Source: a phage. From it: 64,000 nt of DNA. Within the stretch, counting starts at the first letter, position 1. Each line of letters opens with the position of its first letter. Of the stretch, positions 2,346 to 56,424 are shown piece by piece. The notes under the pieces are model-generated. The model made no database searches and was not told the DNA's origin. It saw only the letters and a list, made by a program, of their open reading frames with translations. Location of the stretch: the sequence record PX104379.1, one strand, 5' to 3'. The position numbers and the translations under genes are program-made.

Positions 2346-2926
2346 TATTCACCACAGAATTCGTTGATATTTTCCCAGTTTAACTTATTCAAGTTTTTCT
2401 TAGGAACATTAAACACTTCAATACCTGCATTTCGCAGAATATCATCCCAGCCAGGTTTATTTTTATCGTATGTTTCGCAATAAACCAGCTTTTTAATACC
2501 AGATTGAGCTATCGCTTTTGCACAATCTGGACAAGGAGAAAGTGTTACATACATAGTAGCACCTTCAATAGAAGAACCATTTCGTGCAGCAAACAAAATT
2601 GCATTTAGTTCAGCATGAATTTCATTTTTAGACGACCATTCAGAGTGAGCGCTACGGTGTTCTTTCGCCAAGACAAAGCGATCAGTTGAACCAAATGATA
2701 CGCATTCAGGCTTATGGCCTTGGATGATAGTATGTTTAGGTTTATTCAGCAACCAACCTTGCTCAGCGGCATAATCACAACAGTTCACACCTCCTGCGGG
2801 TGAACCATTATACCCAGTAGAAATAATACGTCCATTCTTTTCAATTACTGCTCCTACCTTCCAGGAGCAACATTTTGATTCTTGTGATACTAAATATGCA
2901 ATTTGAAGTACTGTACTCGCTTTCAT
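2345..2926 (-). CDS. cd: dCMP deaminase, 193 aa
   Basis: Cytidine/dCMP deaminase zinc motifs (HAELNAI ... PCPDCAKAI); 193 aa as T4 Cd. Confidence 0.9.
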   Translation of the reverse strand: MKASTVLQIAYLVSQESKCCSWKVGAVIEKNGRIISTGYNGSPAGGVNCCDYAAEQGWLLNKPKHTIIQGHKPECVSFGSTDRFVLAKEHRSAHSEWSSKNEIHAELNAILFAARNGSSIEGATMYVTLSPCPDCAKAIAQSGIKKLVYCETYDKNKPGWDDILRNAGIEVFNVPKKNLNKLNWENINEFCGE

Positions 2927-3261
2927 TTCATAATCACCAGATAAGCAGATTTAGCAGTTTCAACACGATAAATTTCATGACGAAGTTTAGTTATACTTTT
3001 AATAACAGAACTAATTATATTCTGTCCGTCTTTAAAGCGGTTTTTCTTATCAATAAAAATTGCGCCAACCATCTTTTTGTGAAGCTCAACTGGATACTTC
3101 GTCACAATAATAGCATCATATACAGAAGGATGAATACTATTTACTAGAGTGTCATTCATTAAAGTTATTCTAATGAACTGTGCTGTTTCAGAGTCAAGCG
3201 CTCTATGATCGCCAGTATCATTTTCAAGACAATTATCAATTATATCAGTTAAATTCATCAT
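2923..3261 (-). CDS. hypothetical protein, 112 aa
   Basis: ORF track; overlapping stop/start with neighbours. Confidence 0.55.
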   Translation of the reverse strand: MMNLTDIIDNCLENDTGDHRALDSETAQFIRITLMNDTLVNSIHPSVYDAIIVTKYPVELHKKMVGAIFIDKKNRFKDGQNIISSVIKSITKLRHEIYRVETAKSAYLVIMK

Positions 3262-3593
3262 AGTACGCCATACACCCTTTGTGCTTCAACTAATCCATCA
3301 AAATCCAGTTTAAGATGCGATATTTGATCGCCATCGCCTGGATTCACAATTACTAATACTGAACGAGGAGTTTCGGTAATAACACGAACCGATGTTTCAG
3401 GAAATCGTTCAGAAACCTTATTTACCAATTCCTGAGCAAATAGTTTAACTTTTTCTTGGAATTCTTTAACAGTAATTGGTTTTTCACTTAGCAGCATTTT
3501 GTTTTCCTCATTTGTTTGGTAGAGCCATAATATCACAACTCTACCGTAAAGTAAACTATTAAATCGCTTTGAATTCCGCAGTTTGAGATTCAA
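3258..3593 (-). CDS. hypothetical protein, 111 aa
   Basis: ORF track. Confidence 0.55.
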   Translation of the reverse strand: MNLKLRNSKRFNSLLYGRVVILWLYQTNEENKMLLSEKPITVKEFQEKVKLFAQELVNKVSERFPETSVRVITETPRSVLVIVNPGDGDQISHLKLDFDGLVEAQRVYGVL

Positions 3594-3834
3594 AGCGAAT
3601 GTCGCCTTTGATAACTAACTCAGCATCAAGACCGAATACGACAATGATATGCGCGGAACCTGGATACAGCGTAATGGCAACAGAATCCACCTGGTCTGGA
3701 AGCAAAGTGTTTAATACATGAGTCACTTGAGCATGGATTCGAAGTTCGGCTGCGTTATCAAGCTTTTCAAACATATTATTAGCGATAATTTGGCTAAACA
3801 CTACTTCTACGATTTTAGAGTAAGTCGGAAACAT
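3559..3834 (-). CDS. hypothetical protein, 91 aa
   Basis: ORF track. Confidence 0.5.
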   Translation of the reverse strand: MFPTYSKIVEVVFSQIIANNMFEKLDNAAELRIHAQVTHVLNTLLPDQVDSVAITLYPGSAHIIVVFGLDAELVIKGDIRFESQTAEFKAI

Positions 3835-3836
3835 AT

Positions 3837-4037
3837 TTACCTCGCATAATTTTCTTCAAGCCAATCAATAACATCCAACACATTATCAAAAGTTGAACCA
3901 TCTACTCTGTCTTCTGTTTCATAATCAAGAACATCTAAGCCTACTCTTCCATCAACAATAGGCCATAAACAAAATAGATATTTCTTTTCTTTTTCAATTT
4001 TATCACAAAGACGATAAATCTTTTCTATGTTATTCAT
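3837..4037 (-). CDS. hypothetical protein, 66 aa
   Basis: ORF track. Confidence 0.5.
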   Translation of the reverse strand: MNNIEKIYRLCDKIEKEKKYLFCLWPIVDGRVGLDVLDYETEDRVDGSTFDNVLDVIDWLEENYAR

Positions 4038-4227: not shown

Positions 4228-5430
<1,203 letters not shown>

Positions 5431-32736: not shown

Positions 32737-32886
32737 TTACTGCATGACTGTGATAACTGTCATGATAACACGTTGAATTCCGAACGCAAGAAGACCTCCT
32801 GCTACGGCTGGAACAACACCTAAACCCGCCAGTAAAATGCTACCAGATACTAATGCAGCGCTTGTAATACCAATGAATGGACTCAT
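32737..32886 (-). CDS. small hydrophobic peptide, 49 aa, hand-called
   Basis: Hand translation MSPFIGITSAALVSGSILLAGLGVVPAVAGGLLAFGIQRVIMTVITVMQ; ATG overlaps the gene 52 stop. Confidence 0.35.
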   Translation of the reverse strand: MSPFIGITSAALVSGSILLAGLGVVPAVAGGLLAFGIQRVIMTVITVMQ

Positions 32887-34211
32887 TTGATTTCCTCTAA
32901 ATCTTTGGTGTATTCTGTAACTACATCAGTAGTTTTCCAATATTCGTTTTCTTCTTTTTTAGCTTTAGCTTCTTCAGCAAGTTTCTTTGCTTCATCAGAA
33001 GTCATATGAAAAATATTCATACCAACTAGTTTATCAACATAAGAAGAATACATCTCAATTTTAGAAAGTTCTTCAGTCAGTTCTTTGCGAGTTTTACCCT
33101 GTACAACGATTTCACCTGAAATTACTTTCTTAATGAAATGTGCCTTGGCAAAGGCTAAACGAAAAACTGACTCAGTTTCTTTGATTTTGTTATCAATTCG
33201 TTTTTGGACATAAGTTTTACGAACTTCAACAAAGTCTTTAATTAAATCAACTACATTATCGTAAACTTGTAGTTTTCCTTTCTCATTAATAACCGTAATA
33301 TTCTGAGAACGACGCTCAATCAACCCGAAGTCTTTCATAATTTTTGCATGGCGTTCTTCTTCATTATCGCTCAAAGAATATTCTTTACGGAATTTAATTT
33401 TAAAGCCAAAACCATGCTCACCACAAGCATCATCCCATGTAATGAAGCCTTTATCTTCAAGTGGGTCTAAGATTTTACTCACATAAGTTTCACGATCATA
33501 CTTATACGGAATCTCAGTGATATGCATTTGAGTTCGTGAAGTAAACTTATATGTTCCACGAATTTCATATTGCCCATCAATTTCAACGACTTCACCACGA
33601 AATTCTGGGAATTCTACCTTCGGTTTAGTTACTTTCTTTCCTTGAAGAGCTTGCAGTACAGCTTTCTTGACAGAAGAAACACTATGAGGAAGAATGTAAG
33701 TTGCATAGCCAGTTGCAATACCGGAAACACCATTAAGAAGAACAGTAGGAATAATAGGCAAATAGAAAGCAGGCGGAATGTGTTCTTTATCTTGATGTAC
33801 CGGAGCATATTCAGTATCTTTATATACGTTATAGAAATTTTTACTTACACGAGCAAAAATATAACGACTTGCCGCTGCTTTTTGAACGGTACGAGAACCA
33901 AAGTTTCCTTGACCATCTAACAGAGGAAAATTATTATTCCAAGTGTTAGCCATCAAAGCACCCGCGTCTTGTGCAGAGTTTTCGCCATGATGATATCCAA
34001 GGTCCGCTACACCACCTGCAATAGAAGCGAGTTTGTGAAACTTATCTTTATTTCCTCGTGCCAAATCAAGAGCTCGAGCAATAACAAATCGTTGAACTGG
34101 CTTAAATCCGTCAATCATATTTGGAATGGCACGATTTTCAACCGTGTACATAGCATAAGCCAATGCTTCATTATCAATGATACTTTTTAAATCGCGATTA
34201 TTCAGTTGCAT
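32883..34211 (-). CDS. 52: DNA topoisomerase II medium subunit gp52 (GyrA-like), 442 aa
   Basis: 442 aa as T4 gp52; GyrA-type N-terminal region. Confidence 0.9.
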   Translation of the reverse strand: MQLNNRDLKSIIDNEALAYAMYTVENRAIPNMIDGFKPVQRFVIARALDLARGNKDKFHKLASIAGGVADLGYHHGENSAQDAGALMANTWNNNFPLLDGQGNFGSRTVQKAAASRYIFARVSKNFYNVYKDTEYAPVHQDKEHIPPAFYLPIIPTVLLNGVSGIATGYATYILPHSVSSVKKAVLQALQGKKVTKPKVEFPEFRGEVVEIDGQYEIRGTYKFTSRTQMHITEIPYKYDRETYVSKILDPLEDKGFITWDDACGEHGFGFKIKFRKEYSLSDNEEERHAKIMKDFGLIERRSQNITVINEKGKLQVYDNVVDLIKDFVEVRKTYVQKRIDNKIKETESVFRLAFAKAHFIKKVISGEIVVQGKTRKELTEELSKIEMYSSYVDKLVGMNIFHMTSDEAKKLAEEAKAKKEENEYWKTTDVVTEYTKDLEEIK

Positions 34212-37159: not shown

Positions 37160-37178
37160 TTAAGGGCCGAAGCCCTTA
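37160..37178 (-). other. stem-loop overlapping the rIIB stop codon (same hairpin as at 36936, no U-run)
   Basis: Plus strand aagggccgaagccctt overlapping the TAA of rIIB. Confidence 0.5.
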
Positions 37179-38114
37179 TTTAAATTGTTCAGTAACGTCT
37201 TCAACTACTTCGTATTGGCAGGTACGCATTTTAGCATCGTTGTAATCAATCGGAATTGATACTACATCGCGTGGATGTACTTTAACTTTTACAACTCGGC
37301 TGGTTGAACCACCGAAGTGACGAATATAAGATTTAGAACACACATGCAGACCACGAGAACAAGTTTGTGTATCATCGTCATTCACACGAGTACGTGGCAT
37401 TTTAACTACTTTACCAGGACTGTTATCAAAGGTGTTTGAGTGACAGTCAAAGTAATTGCTGCGAACTACTTTCCAAGCATAGAAGTAACCATCTTCTGTA
37501 ATTTCAATATCGTTTGCTACCAAGAAATCAAAGAGTCGAGATACCGCTTTTTGGCTTGGGTTTTCCAGCAGATTTTCCAAGAACGGAAAATAAAATTCAA
37601 AGTTTTCGCCTTTTTCCATCGAGTCAAGAATACGATCAACCAAACCAGACCGCAATTCGATATTTTGATAGAACAAGCTTCCACCTTCAATTCGAACATC
37701 GCCGGAAATATATTTTTCAACAGCACGGCGAACATTAATTTTTTGTGCAGCTTCTTCCAGCTTATCCGCTACAAGCAGATTAAGAATTTCCTGGAAGTTT
37801 GAATGAGTATTAGGAGTTGCGTTATAAGTTACACCGTCAACAGTAATTGAAATGAATTTTTTAGAAGCATTCCAAATAATATCAGATTTAGCAACTGGAG
37901 CAATAACTGCATCGCTATTAACTTTAACTGTAATATCACCGCTAATAGTAACTTTAGAGCGTTTAGCTTCTTCAGCATTTTTCAAAACACGACGGATTGT
38001 GTCAACCGATACACCTTGCCAATCAGCCAATTCCTGTTGGGTGTAATTACCACTTGAATACAGTTTAACAATTTCAGCTTGTTCGTTTTTGGTCAGGCAT
38101 TTAATATTGTACAT
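37176..38114 (-). CDS. rIIB: RIIB protein, 312 aa
   Basis: 312 aa starting MYNIKCLTKNEQAEIVKLYSSGNYTQQELADWQG, recognised as RIIB. Confidence 0.95.
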   Translation of the reverse strand: MYNIKCLTKNEQAEIVKLYSSGNYTQQELADWQGVSVDTIRRVLKNAEEAKRSKVTISGDITVKVNSDAVIAPVAKSDIIWNASKKFISITVDGVTYNATPNTHSNFQEILNLLVADKLEEAAQKINVRRAVEKYISGDVRIEGGSLFYQNIELRSGLVDRILDSMEKGENFEFYFPFLENLLENPSQKAVSRLFDFLVANDIEITEDGYFYAWKVVRSNYFDCHSNTFDNSPGKVVKMPRTRVNDDDTQTCSRGLHVCSKSYIRHFGGSTSRVVKVKVHPRDVVSIPIDYNDAKMRTCQYEVVEDVTEQFK

Positions 38115-38125
38115 AATTTTCCTTA

Positions 38126-40303
38126 TTAGGCCGCAAGGGCCTTCATAGTTTTAGCGATTTGAGAAACTTCATCATCACTTAAAGAGTTGCGATATCCGAT
38201 GAAGTCGGAAACAATACGGAATTTCTTGGTAAACTCAGCAACCATTTTATCACTATTTTTTGAAGCATTATTTGATAATACATCAAAAAGATTAGTTACT
38301 GTCCAGATGTCATGACCGATGGTATCTTTTCCACCATTAAAATATACACCGCGCATTGAACTAACTATATTAGCGAGTCGTGTATATTCTTCAGAAACTT
38401 CATCTGTACTGAAGTACTTCATCATAAAATCTAGTTCAGGATGCTTGATAATTTTATCAATATATCGTTGAGCTGAACTTGAATAACCTACATACTTATC
38501 ATAATCTACATCATCAAAAGCATCTACATATAAATCACGCAAAGATTCAAAAATACATTGGCACTGACCGAGTTCTTTTACCTTTTTCTGTAAAAGCGGA
38601 CGAATAACATAAAATTCATTAATGCCAATAAGATTAGCCATACGAATCAAAATATTCATAGATGGATGACAAAGTGATGTAGTACCATCCATAGAGAAAA
38701 TATCAGAACGATGCATATACGCTACATAACCAGTAATTTCATCTGCTTCTGACGTGAGTGTAAATAGTTCCTCTTTTTCCCATCGCCCATCTTTAATTTC
38801 AAATTTAAATGCTGTAGCAGCTTTAGGACGAGGAGCTTTACTTTTAACTACCTTTGGAATATAGCTTTTAACCAAAGCTTCAATTTCTGACAAATAATGA
38901 ATGTTAACTTCATCACTTTCAAACATTGCCATAATATCAGGTAGTAAATCAATCTGCGATTCTACTTCCGGATTAATAAACAGAAGACGCTCATTGTGAT
39001 GAATATTTAAGGTGTTATTAAATTCACTATCATCTAATGCACGTGCTAATCCACGGACAATATTAACACGATTTTTAATATTATCAATAACAATATTAAT
39101 TTTTGTCGTATTAATACCAAACAGACGATAACTTGATGCAACGGCTGAAGTTTCATGACTTTGCTTAATACGCTTCAGTCGAGGGTCAAGATTTACTTCA
39201 TACACCACGCCTGCATTACATAACTTACTGTCAGGTTCAAACATGCTCTGCATTTTCTTATATGACAGATTTTTAGTCGTGAATTTGACTGAATTACTAA
39301 TCATATAATCTCGAGCAGAATACCCCATCTTCATCAATTCACGATATGTATGACGAGGAGATGTAGATTCTTTAAATCGTTTTACATCTTCATTAAATGC
39401 TTTCTCACTGAGTTCTTTAACTCGTTCAATGATATTTTTACGAGTGCGATCATCTAGTGAAAGAGCCTCGCGAGATGGAGCAATATCAAGTGAACCCATT
39501 GGAAACTTAATGTAATTCACTTCATTGCGAATGCTTAGCCAGTTACGGTCTCTAATAACACCATCGATAGGATAAACAATACCGCCATAGATAGCATATA
39601 ATCCACCACGATCAGGCCAGTATCTTTCTGGATTTACACCATAATAATCATCAAAATCAGGAAAATAATCAATTTCGCGGTCAAGACCATTAATGATAGC
39701 CAAATCTTTGAACGGTCGCATGATATAAGAAACTTCATAAGCAAAGTTTCTAAAGTCTTTTTCTTCAACTGGAACTACGATTTCAATACCAGTTTTATCA
39801 TTTGGACCCATTTCTTTTACGAATGTAGGTTTAATTTGTGGACCATCGCCATCCATGTAAGCTACATAACCACGAATTTCACCTTTATGATACGAAGTAA
39901 TACTAAACGTATCAGTATAACTAAACGGAGATTTAGAACCTAAACCAAATCCGCCAATGAAATCATTAGATTCAGCCTTAGATGAACTGAAGTATGAATT
40001 ATACAAACCAGGAGAATTATCATCACCCTGAATATCAAAATCACTCATACCGGGACCAAAATCTCGGCAAACAAATCGTGGATCTAAACGTCCAGGAACT
40101 TGAATGATAAATTTTTCAGGATTTCCATTGAGAGCATGGGCATCAATCATGTTGGTAATCAATTCACGGACTACTGCGCGAATTTTGTTTGTATACAAAT
40201 CAGATGACAGAATTTTAAATACTTTAGGATTTGCTGCGATGCTAAATGCTTTTGATTTAGAACCATTACCAAGAATTGTTTCTTTTTCAGTGGTGATAAT
40301 CAT
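38126..40303 (-). CDS. rIIA: RIIA protein, 725 aa
   Basis: 725 aa as T4 RIIA; N-terminal GHKL-type ATPase-like region. Confidence 0.95.
38128..38143 (-). other. short stem-loop immediately after the rIIA stop
   Basis: Plus strand aggccgcaagggcct in the 12-nt rIIA-rIIB junction. Confidence 0.4.
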
Positions 40304-40313
40304 AATTTCCTCA

Positions 40314-40517
40314 TTAATTCATATTACGCTTAATAACTTCAGCAACTTCTAGTAGTTCGTCTTTAGTTGCGGTGTCGGATTGAATTTTATCTCTAATATC
40401 TTTAAAGCGGTTTTTAAATTCTTCGGCTTCTCCCATATCGAAAAAGCGTTGAATGATTCTATATTCTCGATGAACTGCTTTATCAAAAAGTTCTAAATTT
40501 ACTTTATATGATTTCAT
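40314..40517 (-). CDS. hypothetical protein, 67 aa (rIIA.1-like)
   Basis: ORF track; located between rIIA and gene 39. Confidence 0.6.
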
Positions 40518-40539
40518 TCCAATATCCTCATTTGCCCAA

Positions 40540-40580
40540 TTAATTATACCACATCCTTGTGGTAAAGTAAACTACTGGCT
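40540..40580 (-). promoter_or_regulatory. T4 early-type promoter overlapping the gene 39 stop
   Basis: Plus strand aattatacc ... 16 nt ... gtaaac. Confidence 0.4.
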
Positions 40581-42392
40581 CATCCATTCTTTACGAAGAT
40601 CAGCATTATCTCCCATGAGCATTTCAAAAAGCTCTTTCCAGTTCTCAGGAAGTTTAACAACATCATATACCGGATTTTGAATCATCTCACGATATTCAGA
40701 TTTTTCCAAAGAGCCAAGTCCCTTAATATAACGGATGCTATGTTTAGGTAGAGCATCTTTAGCACTCTCATATTCAGCGACTGTATAAAACCATTCTTGT
40801 TTTTTACCGACCTGAGCGATGATTACAGGAGTTTTGACAAAGCGAATTCGTCCTTGCTCAAACAATTCTGGCCAATTACTAAAAAACCCGAGCAGAGAAG
40901 GATAAATGCTTCCTAAACCATCATGGTCAGCATCGGTCATAATAGCAATATTATGATAATTCAAGTTTTCAGCTTTTTCACCAAGAACTAATCCAGTGAT
41001 TGCGCAAATATCAAACAGTTCTTTGTTTTTAAGCATATCAGCATATGACATACCCCAACTGTTGAGAACTTTACCACGCAATGGATAACCACCATGAAGT
41101 TCTTTATCACGAACATCAATAAGATATCCGATAGCAGAATCACCCTCAGTCAAGAAAAGAGTAGTATCAGCATCTTTACCACAAAGATTCGCTTTGATAT
41201 GTTTATGAACCTTAGCTTTAGAAGCCTTTTTAGCTGCTTTAGTTTCTGCTGCTTTTTCTGCTGCCAATTTACGGGCCAAAGCAGCTTCAATAATCGGCAT
41301 TAAAATTGCTTCATTATTTAGAATAGCGCGTGAAATCTTTTTAGCATCAAGTTGAATATGACTACGAATTTCACCAAAAGGAGAAGTAAGTCGTTCTTTA
41401 GTTTGAGAATCAAATCGCATGTTTTTCATATCACGGACAAACATAACGATAGTCAAACATTCTTTAACGCGTGCTTTAGTTACATCAATTTTGAACTTAC
41501 GTTTGATTTGTGGAATAAGGTCTTCACAAATATCATCCATAACACAGTCAATGTGATGGCCACCATTCTTAGTGTGAATGTTATTCACATAAGTTAATTG
41601 GCGAAATCCATCCGGTGAACGACCAACCGCAATAGAACAATTTTCTTGTTCTTGAACAATAGCATGTTCATCATACTGTCGTGCATATTTCTTAAAATTG
41701 CCCTGAACCTTTTTACCATTAAAGGTAAATTGAATATCAGGATAAACAACAGCAAGTGTCTGGAGACGATCTAGTGTAATGTCAAGATAAACTTGGGACA
41801 GCTCATTAGTTTCAAATGACATAAAATCTGGAATGAAAGTAACACGAGTTCCTTTCCATTTTCCAGGAATAGTTTCCCAGGATTTATTTTCCATGCCATT
41901 TGAACAACGAACTACAATATTATTTTGACCATCGCCAGTTTCACCGACAAACATCACAGAAAAAATGTTAGTTAAACTAGAACCAACACCATTCATACCA
42001 CCGGTGACGCGTTCTTTATCATCACCGAAGTTACCACCTGCTTTTGGAATAGTCCAAGCAGCAACTGGACCAGGAATTTCTTCACCGGTAGGTGTTTTAA
42101 CCATCGCTTGTGGAATACCGCGACCGTTATCTTCAACTGTTACCTGATTATTTTTAATGGTAACATTAATTTTATTCGCGAATTTAAACTTAGTACGAAT
42201 ACCTTCATCGACTGAGTTATCGATAATTTCATCAATAAGCTTAACAAGACCAGGTACATACTGAACACTTTCCCATTTACCAAACAGAAAGCGCTCATGC
42301 ATTTCATTAGCAGAAGAGCCAATGTACATGCCACTACGCTTTTTGATATGTTCAATATCGCTCAGAATTTTAATTTCATTCTTAATCATCAC
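40572..42392 (-). CDS. 39: DNA topoisomerase II large subunit gp39 (GyrB-like), unsplit, 606 aa
   Basis: Single contiguous 606 aa ORF with ATPase and Toprim regions; no separate gene 60. Confidence 0.9.
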   Translation of the reverse strand: MMIKNEIKILSDIEHIKKRSGMYIGSSANEMHERFLFGKWESVQYVPGLVKLIDEIIDNSVDEGIRTKFKFANKINVTIKNNQVTVEDNGRGIPQAMVKTPTGEEIPGPVAAWTIPKAGGNFGDDKERVTGGMNGVGSSLTNIFSVMFVGETGDGQNNIVVRCSNGMENKSWETIPGKWKGTRVTFIPDFMSFETNELSQVYLDITLDRLQTLAVVYPDIQFTFNGKKVQGNFKKYARQYDEHAIVQEQENCSIAVGRSPDGFRQLTYVNNIHTKNGGHHIDCVMDDICEDLIPQIKRKFKIDVTKARVKECLTIVMFVRDMKNMRFDSQTKERLTSPFGEIRSHIQLDAKKISRAILNNEAILMPIIEAALARKLAAEKAAETKAAKKASKAKVHKHIKANLCGKDADTTLFLTEGDSAIGYLIDVRDKELHGGYPLRGKVLNSWGMSYADMLKNKELFDICAITGLVLGEKAENLNYHNIAIMTDADHDGLGSIYPSLLGFFSNWPELFEQGRIRFVKTPVIIAQVGKKQEWFYTVAEYESAKDALPKHSIRYIKGLGSLEKSEYREMIQNPVYDVVKLPENWKELFEMLMGDNADLRKEWMSQ

Positions 42393-42458
42393 TTATCCTC
42401 GTTTGGTTTCGGGAATATTATACTCCGGTAATCATAAAGCTAAAGGCCCGAAGGCCTT

Positions 42459-42728
42459 TTATTTAAAACGAATAGTTGAATCCTTAAAGAACAGCCCAGA
42501 ACATACTGTTCCTTCTACTTTCTGCCCGGTAGGTCCAATAGCACGAAATCCAGTATGTTGGAAATCATTTTCAGAGCAACCGAACCAGTTATATCCAGTG
42601 ATTTCAATATTAGTAAAACCACTTGAAGACAAAACTTTAGTTGCATTATCAGCATCAGTACATCCTACTAAAGACACTGCTAATACTAATGCTGCGATAG
42701 AACGATTAATATATTTCATAATTTTCAC
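42459..42728 (-). CDS. putative lipoprotein, 89 aa
   Basis: Signal peptide with lipobox LVGC. Confidence 0.55.
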   Translation of the reverse strand: MKIMKYINRSIAALVLAVSLVGCTDADNATKVLSSSGFTNIEITGYNWFGCSENDFQHTGFRAIGPTGQKVEGTVCSGLFFKDSTIRFK

Positions 42729-43102
42729 TTAAATTTAATGGCTTGAAGAAGACTAATAACTCTCAAGCGGCTTCTTTCATCTTTAACTGTAAAAGAAAGA
42801 GGATCGCCAGATTTCATAGTGATAGTGCATTCAAAATCAAAATCTTCTGTAACTTCTTCGAATAGGTCAAATTCTTCATCATAAATTAGAACATTACTCT
42901 GAAAACTGTGAAGAATTTTTCCATCATTTCCAGATGCTGTACTAATCATTGTGACATTATTACCTTTCATATCTTCAACGATAAATTCGCTTGTAGATAT
43001 TACATTACTAATAGAACCATTCCTATAAATAGCAGAAAATAGATATTTCTTTTCTTCACCTTCGCGAATGCGATATTTCTTACCGATTTTAAACATAATC
43101 AC
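42725..43102 (-). CDS. hypothetical protein, about 123-125 aa
   Basis: ORF track (GTG start in the table; ATG two codons later). Confidence 0.55.
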   Translation of the reverse strand: MIMFKIGKKYRIREGEEKKYLFSAIYRNGSISNVISTSEFIVEDMKGNNVTMISTASGNDGKILHSFQSNVLIYDEEFDLFEEVTEDFDFECTITMKSGDPLSFTVKDERSRLRVISLLQAIKFK

Positions 43103-44302: not shown

Positions 44303-44722
44303 TTATGCTAAAGCTGCTTCGCACCATTTTTTAATTTGGAATTCAGGAACTACCATGAACTGGCCTGCAAAAACAATATTGTAGAGCTTGACGCCATCTT
44401 CTACCCAACGGTCCGAAATAAAACCAGCGACTTGATTCGTTGTCCATGGAGTTCCATCTGTTGCCGCCGCAATTGTGAATTTATGGTCTTTTACAACTAA
44501 AACTGAAGAACAAAGTTTCCATTTAAATGCGCTTTCTTCTGGCTCAATGAACTGACTTGAGACATAACCAATGTTACCATCAGCGTCACGAACTTTAACC
44601 TCGTTACGACCAAAAACTGGATCACTTACAGAAAGAACTTCAACCAGCTTTCCTGCAACTTTAGAACGAGAAGCAACAGATACATATACGTAATCACCAG
44701 TAGAGAGATTTACAATATTCAT
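44303..44722 (-). CDS. hypothetical protein, 139 aa; member 1 of a tandem paralog triplet
   Basis: Shares C-terminal motif D(R/Q)W(V/I)EDG(V/K)xL(Y/L)N(I/V)V..G..xVV with the next two ORFs. Confidence 0.6.
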   Translation of the reverse strand: MNIVNLSTGDYVYVSVASRSKVAGKLVEVLSVSDPVFGRNEVKVRDADGNIGYVSSQFIEPEESAFKWKLCSSVLVVKDHKFTIAAATDGTPWTTNQVAGFISDRWVEDGVKLYNIVFAGQFMVVPEFQIKKWCEAALA

Positions 44723-44731
44723 AATAATTCC

Positions 44732-45208
44732 TTAAGCTTTACGAGGAGAAGCATAACGAGTGATTTCAGATTCTTCAACAACCCGGAAGTCACCTAAGAA
44801 TACGATATTGTATAGCTTTTTACCGTCTTCAATCCATTGGTCTGTGATGAAGCCACACATCCTATCAGTTTTACTTGGACCAGCGAAATCATCAATATAA
44901 TCGAATTCTTCATCAGTTACAAATTCAACGCCTTTACACAACGCCCATTTAAATTGTGCATTAGACTCAGTGGATTCAACTTCTTCAACAGAAGCAAAAT
45001 GAGAGCTAACACGAGTTTCCAGAAATTTAGGACTTACGTAAGCGTACTGAGTTTCAGTTTTTCCAGAACTAGGAATGATTCGAACTTTAACTTCTTTAAC
45101 ACGACCAGTACCATTAGTACGAAGTCCTACCACTTCAACTAGACGACCTGCAGCTTTAGAACGAGATGCAGATGATACACGCTTAATTTCACCAATATTA
45201 ATAATCAT
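44732..45208 (-). CDS. hypothetical protein, 158 aa; member 2 of a tandem paralog triplet
   Basis: Conserved motif GFITDQWIEDGKKLYNIVFLGDFRVVEE. Confidence 0.6.
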   Translation of the reverse strand: MIINIGEIKRVSSASRSKAAGRLVEVVGLRTNGTGRVKEVKVRIIPSSGKTETQYAYVSPKFLETRVSSHFASVEEVESTESNAQFKWALCKGVEFVTDEEFDYIDDFAGPSKTDRMCGFITDQWIEDGKKLYNIVFLGDFRVVEESEITRYASPRKA

Positions 45209-45249
45209 AGTTATCTCTCACTTGTTAAAAAGATTTTATACTCCACGGG

Positions 45250-45290
45250 ACCATTATACTCTGGTCCCAAGAGTTTGTAAACTAGCTTAC
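45250..45290 (-). promoter_or_regulatory. T4 early-type promoter
   Basis: Plus strand ccattatactc ... 16 nt ... tgtaaac. Confidence 0.4.
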
Positions 45291-45719
45291 ACGAACATTA
45301 ATCACTGCGCTGCGAGGAACTACAGAGTACTCTCCAGCATGAACTACGTTCAGAAGTTCAACACCATCTTCAATCCACTGATCAGTCACCCATCCACCCA
45401 CAGGATTCGCGAATGGACGACGAATATAAACTGCCTTACACAGCAGATCAGTTGGATCTTCAGGTTTTTCAATTTCTGTCAATAGACTAAAATCTTTTTC
45501 ATAAATAATAAGCGGTGATACCATTCCATAATAGTTTCTAATTTCAATATACATCATACCGATAAGAATTCCGCTATTAACACTAATAACAGTAAAAGGA
45601 TATCCGCCAGTTAAACCAAGAAGTTCACAAAACTTATTATGAGCTGTATTAGACAGTACCGAAAAATTCTTAATTTCATCAAATTTTTTCAATTGATAAA
45701 CAGCATTATTTTTAATCAT
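45282..45719 (-). CDS. hypothetical protein, 145 aa; member 3 of a tandem paralog triplet
   Basis: Conserved motif GGWVTDQWIEDGVELLNVVHAGEYSVVPR. Confidence 0.6.
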   Translation of the reverse strand: MIKNNAVYQLKKFDEIKNFSVLSNTAHNKFCELLGLTGGYPFTVISVNSGILIGMMYIEIRNYYGMVSPLIIYEKDFSLLTEIEKPEDPTDLLCKAVYIRRPFANPVGGWVTDQWIEDGVELLNVVHAGEYSVVPRSAVINVRVS

Positions 45720-53643: not shown

Positions 53644-53889
53644 TTATTCACCAGTTACTTTCCACAAATCTTCGTTTGCAGTAATCCATTCAGTACGTTG
53701 ATTTTCTTCATATACTGTAGAATATGCTGCTTTTTCTGAAGGGAATGTCTGGTAATGAGCACCAGAAATTTTATGAACGTCAGAATAAAGAGGGAAAGCT
53801 ACGGAAATTTCCTTTCCTTCAATTTTCTTATTTCCATCTAATTTCTGCTCAAATGTTTTGATATTAACATAACCGCGAGTACTAGCCAT
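53644..53889 (-). CDS. soc: small outer capsid protein Soc
   Basis: Sequence MASTRGYVNIKTFEQKLDGNKKIEGKEISVAFPLYSDVHK recognised as Soc. Confidence 0.95.
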   Translation of the reverse strand: MASTRGYVNIKTFEQKLDGNKKIEGKEISVAFPLYSDVHKISGAHYQTFPSEKAAYSTVYEENQRTEWITANEDLWKVTGE

Positions 53890-53919
53890 GTAATTCTCCT
53901 TTTATTTAAATTACATGAT

Positions 53920-53927
53920 TATTTATA
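53920..53927 (-). promoter_or_regulatory. T4 late promoter TATAAATA for soc
   Basis: Exact TATAAATA on the minus strand about 30 nt upstream of the soc ATG. Confidence 0.65.
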
Positions 53928-53957
53928 ATAAATTCTCGCGGCTTTTAAGACGAGCTG

Positions 53958-54476
53958 TTAATAACCTCGGTCCTGACGAGCAAAGTTCTCGGCATTTTTC
54001 AGATAATAAAGTTTAAAGATTTCTTCTGCTGTAAGACCAAGACCCTGGAACATATTCAGAACGAAATGAAGAATATCAATCATTTCAAATTTAATTTCTA
54101 ACTGGTCTTGTGGAGACAAATCAGTAATCAGAGTTTCACGACGTTCACCATGCTGCGACTTCCAAGGTTTCCATACAGCAGATGCGTCTTTTTCACCATT
54201 ACTCATACCACCAAGAGAAGTCAGAAGTTCACGGAATTCATCGTCAATATAATCTTTCTGATTACGCAACCAATCAACAACTTCACCGGCAGTAGCCAAG
54301 TCATCAGGATGACGATTATATTCAGGTTTATCTTTAGCTAAACGAATCTGCAGAGATTTCTGCATGTCAAGCATTACCTGCAGCGGGTCTTTTTCATCAC
54401 CGAGAATATCCCAATATTCATTTTGAGCTTTATCAGCGCCTTCGATCAGTTGACTACATTCGTTGAAATGTGGCAT
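53958..54476 (-). CDS. 56: dCTP/dCDP pyrophosphatase gp56 (MazG-like), 172 aa
   Basis: 171-172 aa; recognised as T4 gp56. Confidence 0.9.
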   Translation of the reverse strand: MPHFNECSQLIEGADKAQNEYWDILGDEKDPLQVMLDMQKSLQIRLAKDKPEYNRHPDDLATAGEVVDWLRNQKDYIDDEFRELLTSLGGMSNGEKDASAVWKPWKSQHGERRETLITDLSPQDQLEIKFEMIDILHFVLNMFQGLGLTAEEIFKLYYLKNAENFARQDRGY

Positions 54477-54477
54477 G

Positions 54478-55128
54478 TTATTTTTCCTTTCTTATGAAGT
54501 TTTCTATCATATGTCTATAGCAGATATTAGGATAACCTGCCTTGACAGCTATTTTATTAAATTTTGTGCGCTTAGGTCTATTATTATAAACCCATAATTC
54601 ATAAAGCGCATCATAACTATTCCATATTTCTCCTCGCCTAGGATTTGGTAAACCATATCGAGGTGAATTTTTACCGCTAAATCTTCCTTTTCGGGCTTTA
54701 CTCATATTAGCCTTGGCTTCATCGGATATAATTTTACCTTTATGAGCTAGACGCATTTTGGCTTTAGTTTCTTCTGGGGTCTTTTTGCCTTTAATCCATG
54801 ACGGCTTGCCATATCTAGGATTATTTTCACCCGAGAAAAGAACAGAGTTTTGGATTTTAAGGGTTTCTATTAATCTACTTGTTAATTTAACACCTTTATT
54901 ATATCGCATTAAATTTACAGCATAATGCAATCCTCTCACATCTGGATATATTTTAGTTAATAATCTATGAGCTATAAAATGCTCACGCGCAGTTAACTCA
55001 ACAAGATTGTTTTTGTCATCTGCTCCTCCTATACATCTAGGAATTATATGATGGCGTTCTTTATATCCGCCAAGATGCCGGCATTTAGCTTTTGTAATTA
55101 AAGCCGAGTAAATTTTTTGGTAATTCAC
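54478..55128 (-). CDS. HNH homing-endonuclease-like protein with NUMOD3 DNA-binding repeats, 216 aa
   Basis: HNH motif ERHHIIPRCIGGADDKNNLVELTAREHFIAH; two NUMOD3-like repeats (PEETKAKMRLAHKGK, SDEAKANMSKARKGR). Confidence 0.8.
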   Translation of the reverse strand: MNYQKIYSALITKAKCRHLGGYKERHHIIPRCIGGADDKNNLVELTAREHFIAHRLLTKIYPDVRGLHYAVNLMRYNKGVKLTSRLIETLKIQNSVLFSGENNPRYGKPSWIKGKKTPEETKAKMRLAHKGKIISDEAKANMSKARKGRFSGKNSPRYGLPNPRRGEIWNSYDALYELWVYNNRPKRTKFNKIAVKAGYPNICYRHMIENFIRKEK

Positions 55129-55198: not shown

Positions 55199-55399
55199 AT
55201 GGTACAAAAATTAATGGCACTTGTTAATGCCATAAAAGGTAATAAAAAACGTATAGCTTTTACTATTTCTGCTATGGTAGGAATTTTACTCTGGAACTTT
55301 ATTTTATCACCAATTGCAATTGCGCATGGTGTTAATATTCCAGTAGTTACTCTTGATACATTCGTAGATCTAGCATTTGCTTTAGTTGGGTTAATTTAA
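55199..55399 (+). CDS. small membrane protein, 66 aa, opposite strand to the surrounding early genes
   Basis: Strong AAGGAGG Shine-Dalgarno 7 nt upstream of the ATG; hydrophobic helices; no overlapping minus-strand ORF. Confidence 0.55.
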   Translation: MVQKLMALVNAIKGNKKRIAFTISAMVGILLWNFILSPIAIAHGVNIPVVTLDTFVDLAFALVGLI

Positions 55400-56424
55400 A
55401 TCTTGGCATATTTAGATAGCCGCATTTTAGCCATTAACCCCTGGGCAATATTATTTTTCATATATTCCATAATTTGTTCAGGGGTTGCACCTTCCTTTCT
55501 AATCATATCATTGACATCTTTTGATTTCCAGGGAGATTTATCCCAAAACATAACCCTTTCTCCTGCATCAACTAATTTAGTCATTCGTTTGATAGTGTCA
55601 GGGTGACGAGGTTCATTATCTAAAACCCACACTCGTCTATCTTTAAATGGAACAATTTCTAGGTCTAATTGACCACCCGTAATAGCTATACCATTTTCAA
55701 TAAAAAGTGAATCTATAGGTCCTTCTAGAACATATACATCACCATCTTTAACTCGTTCGACTCCATATATTTTTGTTGCCTCAGGATAAGCTTTGATGGT
55801 GATATATTTTTGAGGAGCATCTTTCTTTAATGCACGTCCTTGAAAAGACTCAGCTTTTCCATTAGCATTATAAATTGGAATAACAAGACGAGGCTCAGAA
55901 ATTTCCTTTTTGTATGTTCCCGGTGCTATGCTATTAACTAATTTAGGCCATTCAGTTGTAAACCAAAGATATTTCCATTTATCCTTTGGAATACAACGAG
56001 CTTTTACATATTTTATAATTGGATGGTCTTCCGCCAGTTTATCTAATCTAACACATGACGGAAGAGATTTAATTATTTTCTTCTCAAGTTGTTTAGGAAG
56101 TTCTTTAGGTTTTTCTACTGGACGACTTTTACCTTTTTCTTTTCTTATTTCAAAGATATACTCACGATATAAATCAGGTTCAAACTCCTTTAAATATATT
56201 CCGATTGGTGCATGATAGTTACAGTTATAACAATGAATATTTCCTTCATTATTATCACCATAATACCATCCACGAGCTTTATTCTGGTCGGTTTTTGAAT
56301 CTCCACAAACAGGGCATCTAAACCGTAATTTAAAAGTTGAACTATTATTTACTTGTGTGAATTTAGGTAAATGAGCTAATGCACGATACGCAAACTCATT
56401 ATCAATCCAAGGTATTGATGACAT
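55396..56424 (-). CDS. 61: DNA primase gp61, 342 aa
   Basis: 342 aa; N-terminal zinc-binding CPVCGDS ... CYNCNYH; Toprim-like core. Confidence 0.9.
   Translation of the reverse strand: MSSIPWIDNEFAYRALAHLPKFTQVNNSSTFKLRFRCPVCGDSKTDQNKARGWYYGDNNEGNIHCYNCNYHAPIGIYLKEFEPDLYREYIFEIRKEKGKSRPVEKPKELPKQLEKKIIKSLPSCVRLDKLAEDHPIIKYVKARCIPKDKWKYLWFTTEWPKLVNSIAPGTYKKEISEPRLVIPIYNANGKAESFQGRALKKDAPQKYITIKAYPEATKIYGVERVKDGDVYVLEGPIDSLFIENGIAITGGQLDLEIVPFKDRRVWVLDNEPRHPDTIKRMTKLVDAGERVMFWDKSPWKSKDVNDMIRKEGATPEQIMEYMKNNIAQGLMAKMRLSKYAKI

Follow-up and report, generated by a model that had tools for sequence, protein, structure and literature searches.

The type II topoisomerase of T-even-type phages relaxes DNA without introducing supercoils. 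The enzyme consists of two subunits in T2 and T6 and of three in T4 (PMC11461880). The T4 split is derived and was produced by the MobA mobile element (bioRxiv 10.1101/2022.08.31.505936; PMC11461880). This element inserts at nt 1399-1419 of Topo2L and ends just after D490/G491, carries a 50-nt bypass cassette and encodes homR, a stretch 67-81% identical to the parental sequence; closely related genomes without the element were termed 'parental' (bioRxiv 10.1101/2022.08.31.505936). In the T4 reference sequence (NC_000866), the order of the genes is rIIA.1, 60, 60.1, mobA pseudogene and 39, with gene 60 joined across a 50-nt misc_feature (2803..2852). This order agrees with an earlier description of the present DNA made from the letters alone (the sequence-only reading), according to which T4 splits the subunit into genes 39 and 60, with mobA between them and a 50-nt translational bypass.

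The DNA analyzed here, referred to as the window, is a stretch of 64,000 nucleotides from phage sequence record PX104379.1. There is very little doubt that it contains an intact Tequatrovirus gene 39, which encodes an unsplit 605-aa GyrB-like subunit and in which the MobA target site is empty. The ORF listing gave a single ORF without internal stop at 40572..42392 on the minus strand, 606 aa when counted from GTG. With 1.8 kb in DNA of 36% G+C, its length is far beyond chance. One continuous ORF had also been claimed in the sequence-only reading, and no misread frameshift or stop splitting it was found. Coordinates of this gene and of the other features discussed are given in Table 1.

Table 1. 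Gene 39, its functional sites and other features of the window (positions refer to the whole 64,000-nt stretch)
Feature	Coordinates	Strand	Basis or remark
Gene 39, topoisomerase II large (GyrB-like ATPase + TOPRIM) subunit, unsplit, 605 aa from ATG	40572..42389	-	ORF, Pfam, T6 gp39 identity
In-frame GTG directly 5' of ATG, mechanical ORF start	42390..42392	-	Probably not the initiation codon
GHKL ATPase domain, about aa 48-150	41940..42248	-	Pfam PF02518 HATPase_c, E 1.9e-9
Transducer domain DNA_gyraseB, about aa 251-385	41235..41639	-	Pfam PF00204, E 1.5e-13
TOPRIM catalytic Glu415 codon	41145..41147	-	E415 conserved
TOPRIM DxDxD codons (D486, D488, D490)	40920..40934	-	Conserved; in T4 within gp60 just before the bypass gap
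TOPRIM C-terminal associated domain TOPRIM_C, about aa 519-604 (Pfam match 520-605)	40575..40835	-	Pfam PF16898; equals C-terminal part of T4 gp60
Empty MobA-element site, native codons 474-491 (ENLNYHNIAIMTDADHDG)	40917..40970	-	blastn breakpoints, codon view
Bypass-equivalent junction, Gly491 GGT then Leu492 TTA	40914..40919	-	Codon view
Upstream control region of gene 39, middle-promoter-like	42417..42457	-	Sequence inspection
Sigma-70-type promoter-like site TTTACT-17-TG-TATAAT	40543..40571	-	Consensus match only: 10/12, extended -10
rIIA.1, 67 aa, downstream neighbor	40314..40517	-	Pfam PF24210 T4_RIIA1, E 1.4e-33
rIIA	38126..40303	-	Same-strand neighbor
rIIB	37176..38114	-	Same-strand neighbor
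Gene 52, GyrA-like DNA-cleavage subunit, 442 aa, gp39 partner	32883..34211	-	Pfam PF00521 DNA_topoisoIV, E 1.3e-76
mob-type HNH homing endonuclease, 216 aa, NUMOD3	54478..55128	-	48% identical to N-terminal 92 aa of intact HY01 MobA

Alignment to the T4 proteins, as proposed in the sequence-only reading, was colinear and ungapped over both gp39 residues 1-473 (98.3% identity) and gp60 residues 27-160 (95.5% identity), the two alignments meeting at window residues 473/474. Using blastn, window 42721-40972 was matched to T4 5661-3911 (96%), window 40963-40918 to T4 2899-2854 (only 76%) and window 40920-40214 to T4 2806-2100 (97.7%). From the rIIA.1 start to the gene 39 start, T4 is longer by 1053 bp. 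The extra DNA holds a 43-aa C-terminal extension of gp39, the mobA pseudogene/60.1, a unique gp60 N-terminus of 30 aa, a 16-aa homR copy (76% DNA identity) and the 50-nt gap, all of which are absent in the window. In the codon view the window runs continuously through ...GEKA ENLNYHNIAIMTDADHDG LGSIYP..., whereas T4 gene 39 diverges after GEKA into the 43-aa tail followed by a stop, and T4 gene 60 reads ...DADHDG(GGA) UAG and, after the gap, resumes at UUA GGU.

It had been argued in the sequence-only reading that the rIIA.1-39 interval leaves no room for gene 60 or mobA. The absence of the cassette was upheld, but the argument from the gap was not: the interval of 54 nt (40518..40571) equals the rIIA.1-60 gap of T4 and is non-discriminating, because the extra DNA of T4 sits inside the 3' quarter of the window-type ORF. 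What does test for the cassette is whether the sequence stays colinear at codons 473/474 and 491/492, as the window does at both.

The breakpoints between window and T4 agree exactly with the published anatomy of the MobA element. In T4, an element of about 1.0 kb takes the place of codons 474-491 and brings at its end a diverged version of them, 'homR' (76% identity), whereas nt 1417-1473 of the window gene are identical to T2 at 56 of 57 positions. At nt about 1399-1419 of Topo2L, mobA is absent and the window is contiguous across the point. The bypass site of the window reads GAT GGT followed directly by TTA GGA and contains neither stop nor hairpin nor gap; between these Gly and Leu codons, T4 has GGA, UAG, 47 nt and the GGA-landing.

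The whole 64-kb window was searched for the cassette by blastn, tblastn and tblastx using T4 2807-3910 and its four peptides as queries. No homologs of the gp39 C-tail, 60.1 or the gp60 N-terminus were obtained; significant matches were confined to the part of gene 39 that corresponds to homR and to an HNH motif near position 55,000. Similarly, tblastn and tblastx gave no sign of a separate gene 60 product within the 64-kb window; a gene 60 homolog nearby was the finding that, according to the sequence-only reading, would have spoken against an unsplit gene. Inspection of the DNA for a hop-like element was also negative: a hop-like take-off sequence had 0 matches in the window at up to 3 mismatches, and the local RNA fold of 111 nt round the bypass-equivalent site was not unusually structured (z = -0.74).

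MobA was reported to nick T2 within the stretch of codons 474-491, and T4 owes its protection from MobA to the bypass insert (bioRxiv 10.1101/2022.08.31.505936). Because of the reported nick in T2 and the protection of T4 by the insert, the site in the window, nearly identical to the T2 target, is probably MobA-sensitive and the phage a susceptible homing recipient. Close to the region of the reported nick, the window departs from T2 by two synonymous changes: Thr485 is encoded by ACC, not ACT, and Leu492 by TTA, not CTA. Set against a naive cleavable MobA site, the chance is slight that these Thr485 and Leu492 changes constitute a natural resistance allele without bypass cassette.

The description of the product as a GyrB-like subunit, already given in the sequence-only reading, was confirmed by three Pfam domains of type IIA topoisomerases (HATPase_c, DNA_gyraseB and TOPRIM_C), all scoring above the gathering scores, and by conserved catalytic residues. 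The ATPase motifs of gp39 (N-box, G1, G2) were found as DEIIDNSVDE (53-62), DNGRGIP (87-93) and GGMNGVGSS (130-138), and the QTK loop of the transducer as aa 329-331, within QTKERL at 329-334. The catalytic Glu and the acidic cluster of the TOPRIM domain (E415, D486, D488, D490) are all located on one polypeptide; the role of Glu415 was described for T6 Topo II (PMC11461880). Conserved as well are R438, K440 and K556, the DNA-contacting residues according to the T6 structure paper (PMC11461880).

The other half of a two-subunit topoisomerase II, the GyrA-like partner encoded by gene 52, is found in the same genome. Judging from the 99.8%-identical T6 protein, gp39 and gp52 would assemble as a (gp39)2(gp52)2 type IIA topoisomerase, as in T2/T6. 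Given the near-identity to T6, the N-gate, operated by ATP, and the metal site of the TOPRIM domain are predicted to reside in gp39, and the catalytic tyrosine in gp52. By the same comparison, the predicted enzyme would carry out ATP-dependent DNA relaxation during phage replication.

One further observation concerns the T4 record itself. At about 4345..4360 of NC_000866, corresponding to window codons 326-328, T4 reads MR-LIR-QTK versus MR-FDS-QTK in the window, T2, T6 and HY01. The T4 DNA at these codons carries a compensating -1/+1 frameshift, CGATTGATTCGTCAA versus CGATTTGATTCTCAA, just before the catalytic QTK loop. The LIR of the T4 reference gp39 probably reflects a sequencing error of long standing in the record.

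A phmmer search against PDB sequences returned as full-length match gp39 of T6 Topo II (8YLU_C), identical at 604/605 residues and with Q526H as the only difference. Further T6 gp39 entries (8YO1, 8YO5, 8YO7, 8YOD, 8YON) were followed by an engineered T4 gp39-gp60 fusion (8YO3) and later by human TOP2B/TOP2A (E about 1e-59), ParE (4e-48) and GyrB (1e-36). T2 gp39 is identical at 603/605 residues, the differences being F70L and T173D; the alignment with T2 thus agrees with the T2/T6-like state claimed in the sequence-only reading, at two residues from T2 and one from T6. At the DNA level, gene 39 of T2/T6 shows about 3.4% nucleotide differences from that of the window, mostly synonymous. The 61-64 DNA differences correspond to 58-62 synonymous and 1-2 nonsynonymous codon changes, a ratio that indicates strong purifying selection on gene 39.

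A 2.6-kb query round gene 39 was matched in 561 phage records, nearly all Tequatrovirus (Escherichia, Shigella, Yersinia). The best of these was Shigella phage JK38 (Tequatrovirus zeezee23), whose DNA is 99.3% identical over gene 39, with 13 synonymous nucleotide differences, and 98.8% identical over 2.6 kb, and whose protein (QEG05853.1) is the same at every position (0/605 differences). With a 24-kb query, about 96-97% identity was obtained to several known T-even phages, in a mosaic pattern.

The frequency of the unsplit state was obtained using a 151-nt probe (window 41010..40860) covering both T4 breakpoints. This probe was contiguous in 450 phage records, with 96.7% identity to T2 and 95.4% to T6, whereas in T4-type phages, e.g. 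HY03, only its first 36-39 nt were matched, up to the insertion point. The T4 insert (T4 2807-3910) occurred in only 43 records, many of which are T4 isolates or RefSeq/GenBank duplicates. By record count, the unsplit gene 39 is the majority state, roughly 10:1, and the T4 split is the exception. The sequence-only reading, which presented the unsplit gene against T4 as the standard, was correct as to the state itself, but its emphasis has to be reversed: unsplit is common and parental and T4 derived (450 versus 43 records).

Translation from the GTG at 42392 would yield a 606-aa gp39, the length given in the sequence-only reading. This in-frame codon is the earliest possible start after the upstream stop. 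The second codon of the ORF, however, is ATG (42389..42387), and the Shine-Dalgarno sequence GAGGA (42400..42396) lies 6 nt 5' of this ATG and only 3 nt from the GTG. Gene 39 is annotated from ATG in JK38, T2 and T6, with 605 aa each and starting MIKNEIK; the T4 gp39 annotation and the crystallized and solved T6 protein likewise begin MIKNEIK. Use of the GTG is thus very unlikely. The true start is almost certainly the ATG at 42389, and because of the Shine-Dalgarno spacing and the ortholog annotations, gene 39 is best given as 40572..42389, 605 aa, and not 606. A decaying pseudogene or an assembly artefact, e.g. a cassette collapsed out of the assembly, was also considered as an explanation of the ORF. 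No support for either was found in the analysis of gene 39, and both were excluded for all practical purposes because the independent genome JK38 encodes an identical protein, the near-identical T6 protein was purified, active and solved in structure, and the divergence is dominated by synonymous changes (synonymous:nonsynonymous ratio ~60:1-2). In addition, the contiguous junction is common to 450 independent records.

Gene 39 is unsplit because the MobA element, roughly 1.1 kb with its 50-nt bypass cassette, either never entered this genome or has since been lost from it; the locus is the 'parental' empty target site of the element that splits 39/60 in T4 and a minority of relatives. Secondary loss presupposes an ancestor with the MobA/bypass cassette, in which a deletion, or recombination with a phage that the element had not invaded, later made gene 39 whole again. 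The element has been repeatedly gained and lost, and some clades are without endonuclease and bypass after loss (bioRxiv 10.1101/2022.08.31.505936). T-even phages recombine freely, the window being a mosaic about 96-97% identical to many phages, and if a phage with an empty site had been the donor in a gene conversion, nothing of the event would be visible; the present-day state would in practice be the same. Known loss lineages, however, keep the C-/N-terminal extensions as a fused insertion (bioRxiv 10.1101/2022.08.31.505936), of which there is no trace here. Moreover, codons 474-491 follow the parental sequence of T2/T6 (56/57 nt as in T2), not that of T4 homR (76%), and grouping with empty-site phages, as for JK38, T6 and RB3, would speak in the same direction. 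Secondary loss was consequently considered improbable, and the preferred reading of the locus is that gene 39 is intact and its MobA target site empty.

Upstream of gene 39, a GGCC-UUCG-GGCC hairpin followed by UUU (42442..42456) precedes a MotA-box-like GCTTTA (42435..42440), a 12-nt spacer and TATAAT (42417..42422). Going by the known consensus, GCTTTA-12 nt-TATAAT is a putative T4-type middle promoter. The hairpin core GCCUUCGGGC (42446..42455), unique in the window, is the same 10-mer as is found in the take-off stem-loop of T4 gene 60. It was considered as a remnant of a hop and rejected, being an intergenic UUCG tetraloop outside the gene 39 ORF; UUCG tetraloops being stable, the match is most likely due to chance. 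The sigma-70-type promoter-like site is located just past the gene 39 stop, 5' of rIIA.1.

On the far side of gene 39 come an ORF resembling 39.1, an ORF of 125 aa, a homolog of 39.2 with a zinc ribbon, ORFs with a motB domain, and dexA. The 39.1-like ORF (in 42459..43102, minus strand) has 89 aa versus 65 aa in T4 and carries a lipoprotein-like signal (…LAVSLVGC). The adjoining 125-aa ORF (42725..43102, minus strand) is without T4 counterpart and without Pfam match; in T6 a similar ORF is annotated as 'similar to RB69ORF005c'. At 44303..45719 on the minus strand, tandem ORFs of 139, 158 and 145 aa match Pfam motB (E 6e-20, 5e-43 and 8.5e-8, respectively). All three share a C-terminal DQWIEDG…YN(I/V)V and form a small paralog array where T4 has motB, motB.1 and motB.2.

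The mob-type HNH gene listed in Table 1 is the only MobA-like HNH in the window. Its identification as mobA was rejected, as it encodes a different mob-type endonuclease lying between gene 56 (53958..54476) and the primase gene 61 (55396..56424), where T4 has dam. Its GTG start directly abuts the start region of gene 56. It occurs in only 59 phage records, including Klebsiella phages at about 91% identity, and is annotated as 'MobE' in some records. At 53644..54476 (minus strand), gene 56 comes immediately after soc (81 aa); segF, the GIY-YIG homing endonuclease that separates the two genes in T4, is absent. No dam gene was seen at the T4 position. Since segF is absent and dam is not at its T4 position, the mobile endonuclease set differs from that of T4. 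Between the HNH gene and gene 61, a 66-aa hydrophobic ORF (55199..55399) is found on the plus strand, opposite to an otherwise minus-strand block.

The unsplit gene 39 is already known, having been described for decades and structurally characterized, and is not novel. As the textbook contrast to the T4 39/60 split with its 50-nt ribosomal hop, the locus matters little beyond correct annotation, and its one use is as a further 'parental' empty-site sequence in studies of MobA homing. The gene content appears to fit a two-subunit topoisomerase, the structure of which has already been solved for T6.

Compared with known systems, gp39 of the window has the length (605 aa) and domain order of the T2 and T6 proteins. 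The genes of these phages share its flanks, with rIIA.1 downstream and a 39.1-like ORF upstream, and are likewise uninterrupted across the MobA target and the bypass point. T4 encodes the same enzyme subunit, with 98% and 96% identity in the common parts and the same promoter and flank context. Bacterial GyrB/ParE and the N-terminal half of eukaryotic topoisomerase II have the GHKL ATPase, transducer and TOPRIM domains and the E...DxD metal site in common with it. The window gp39 is shorter than E. coli GyrB, and it resembles eukaryotic Topo II and ParE more closely than GyrB.
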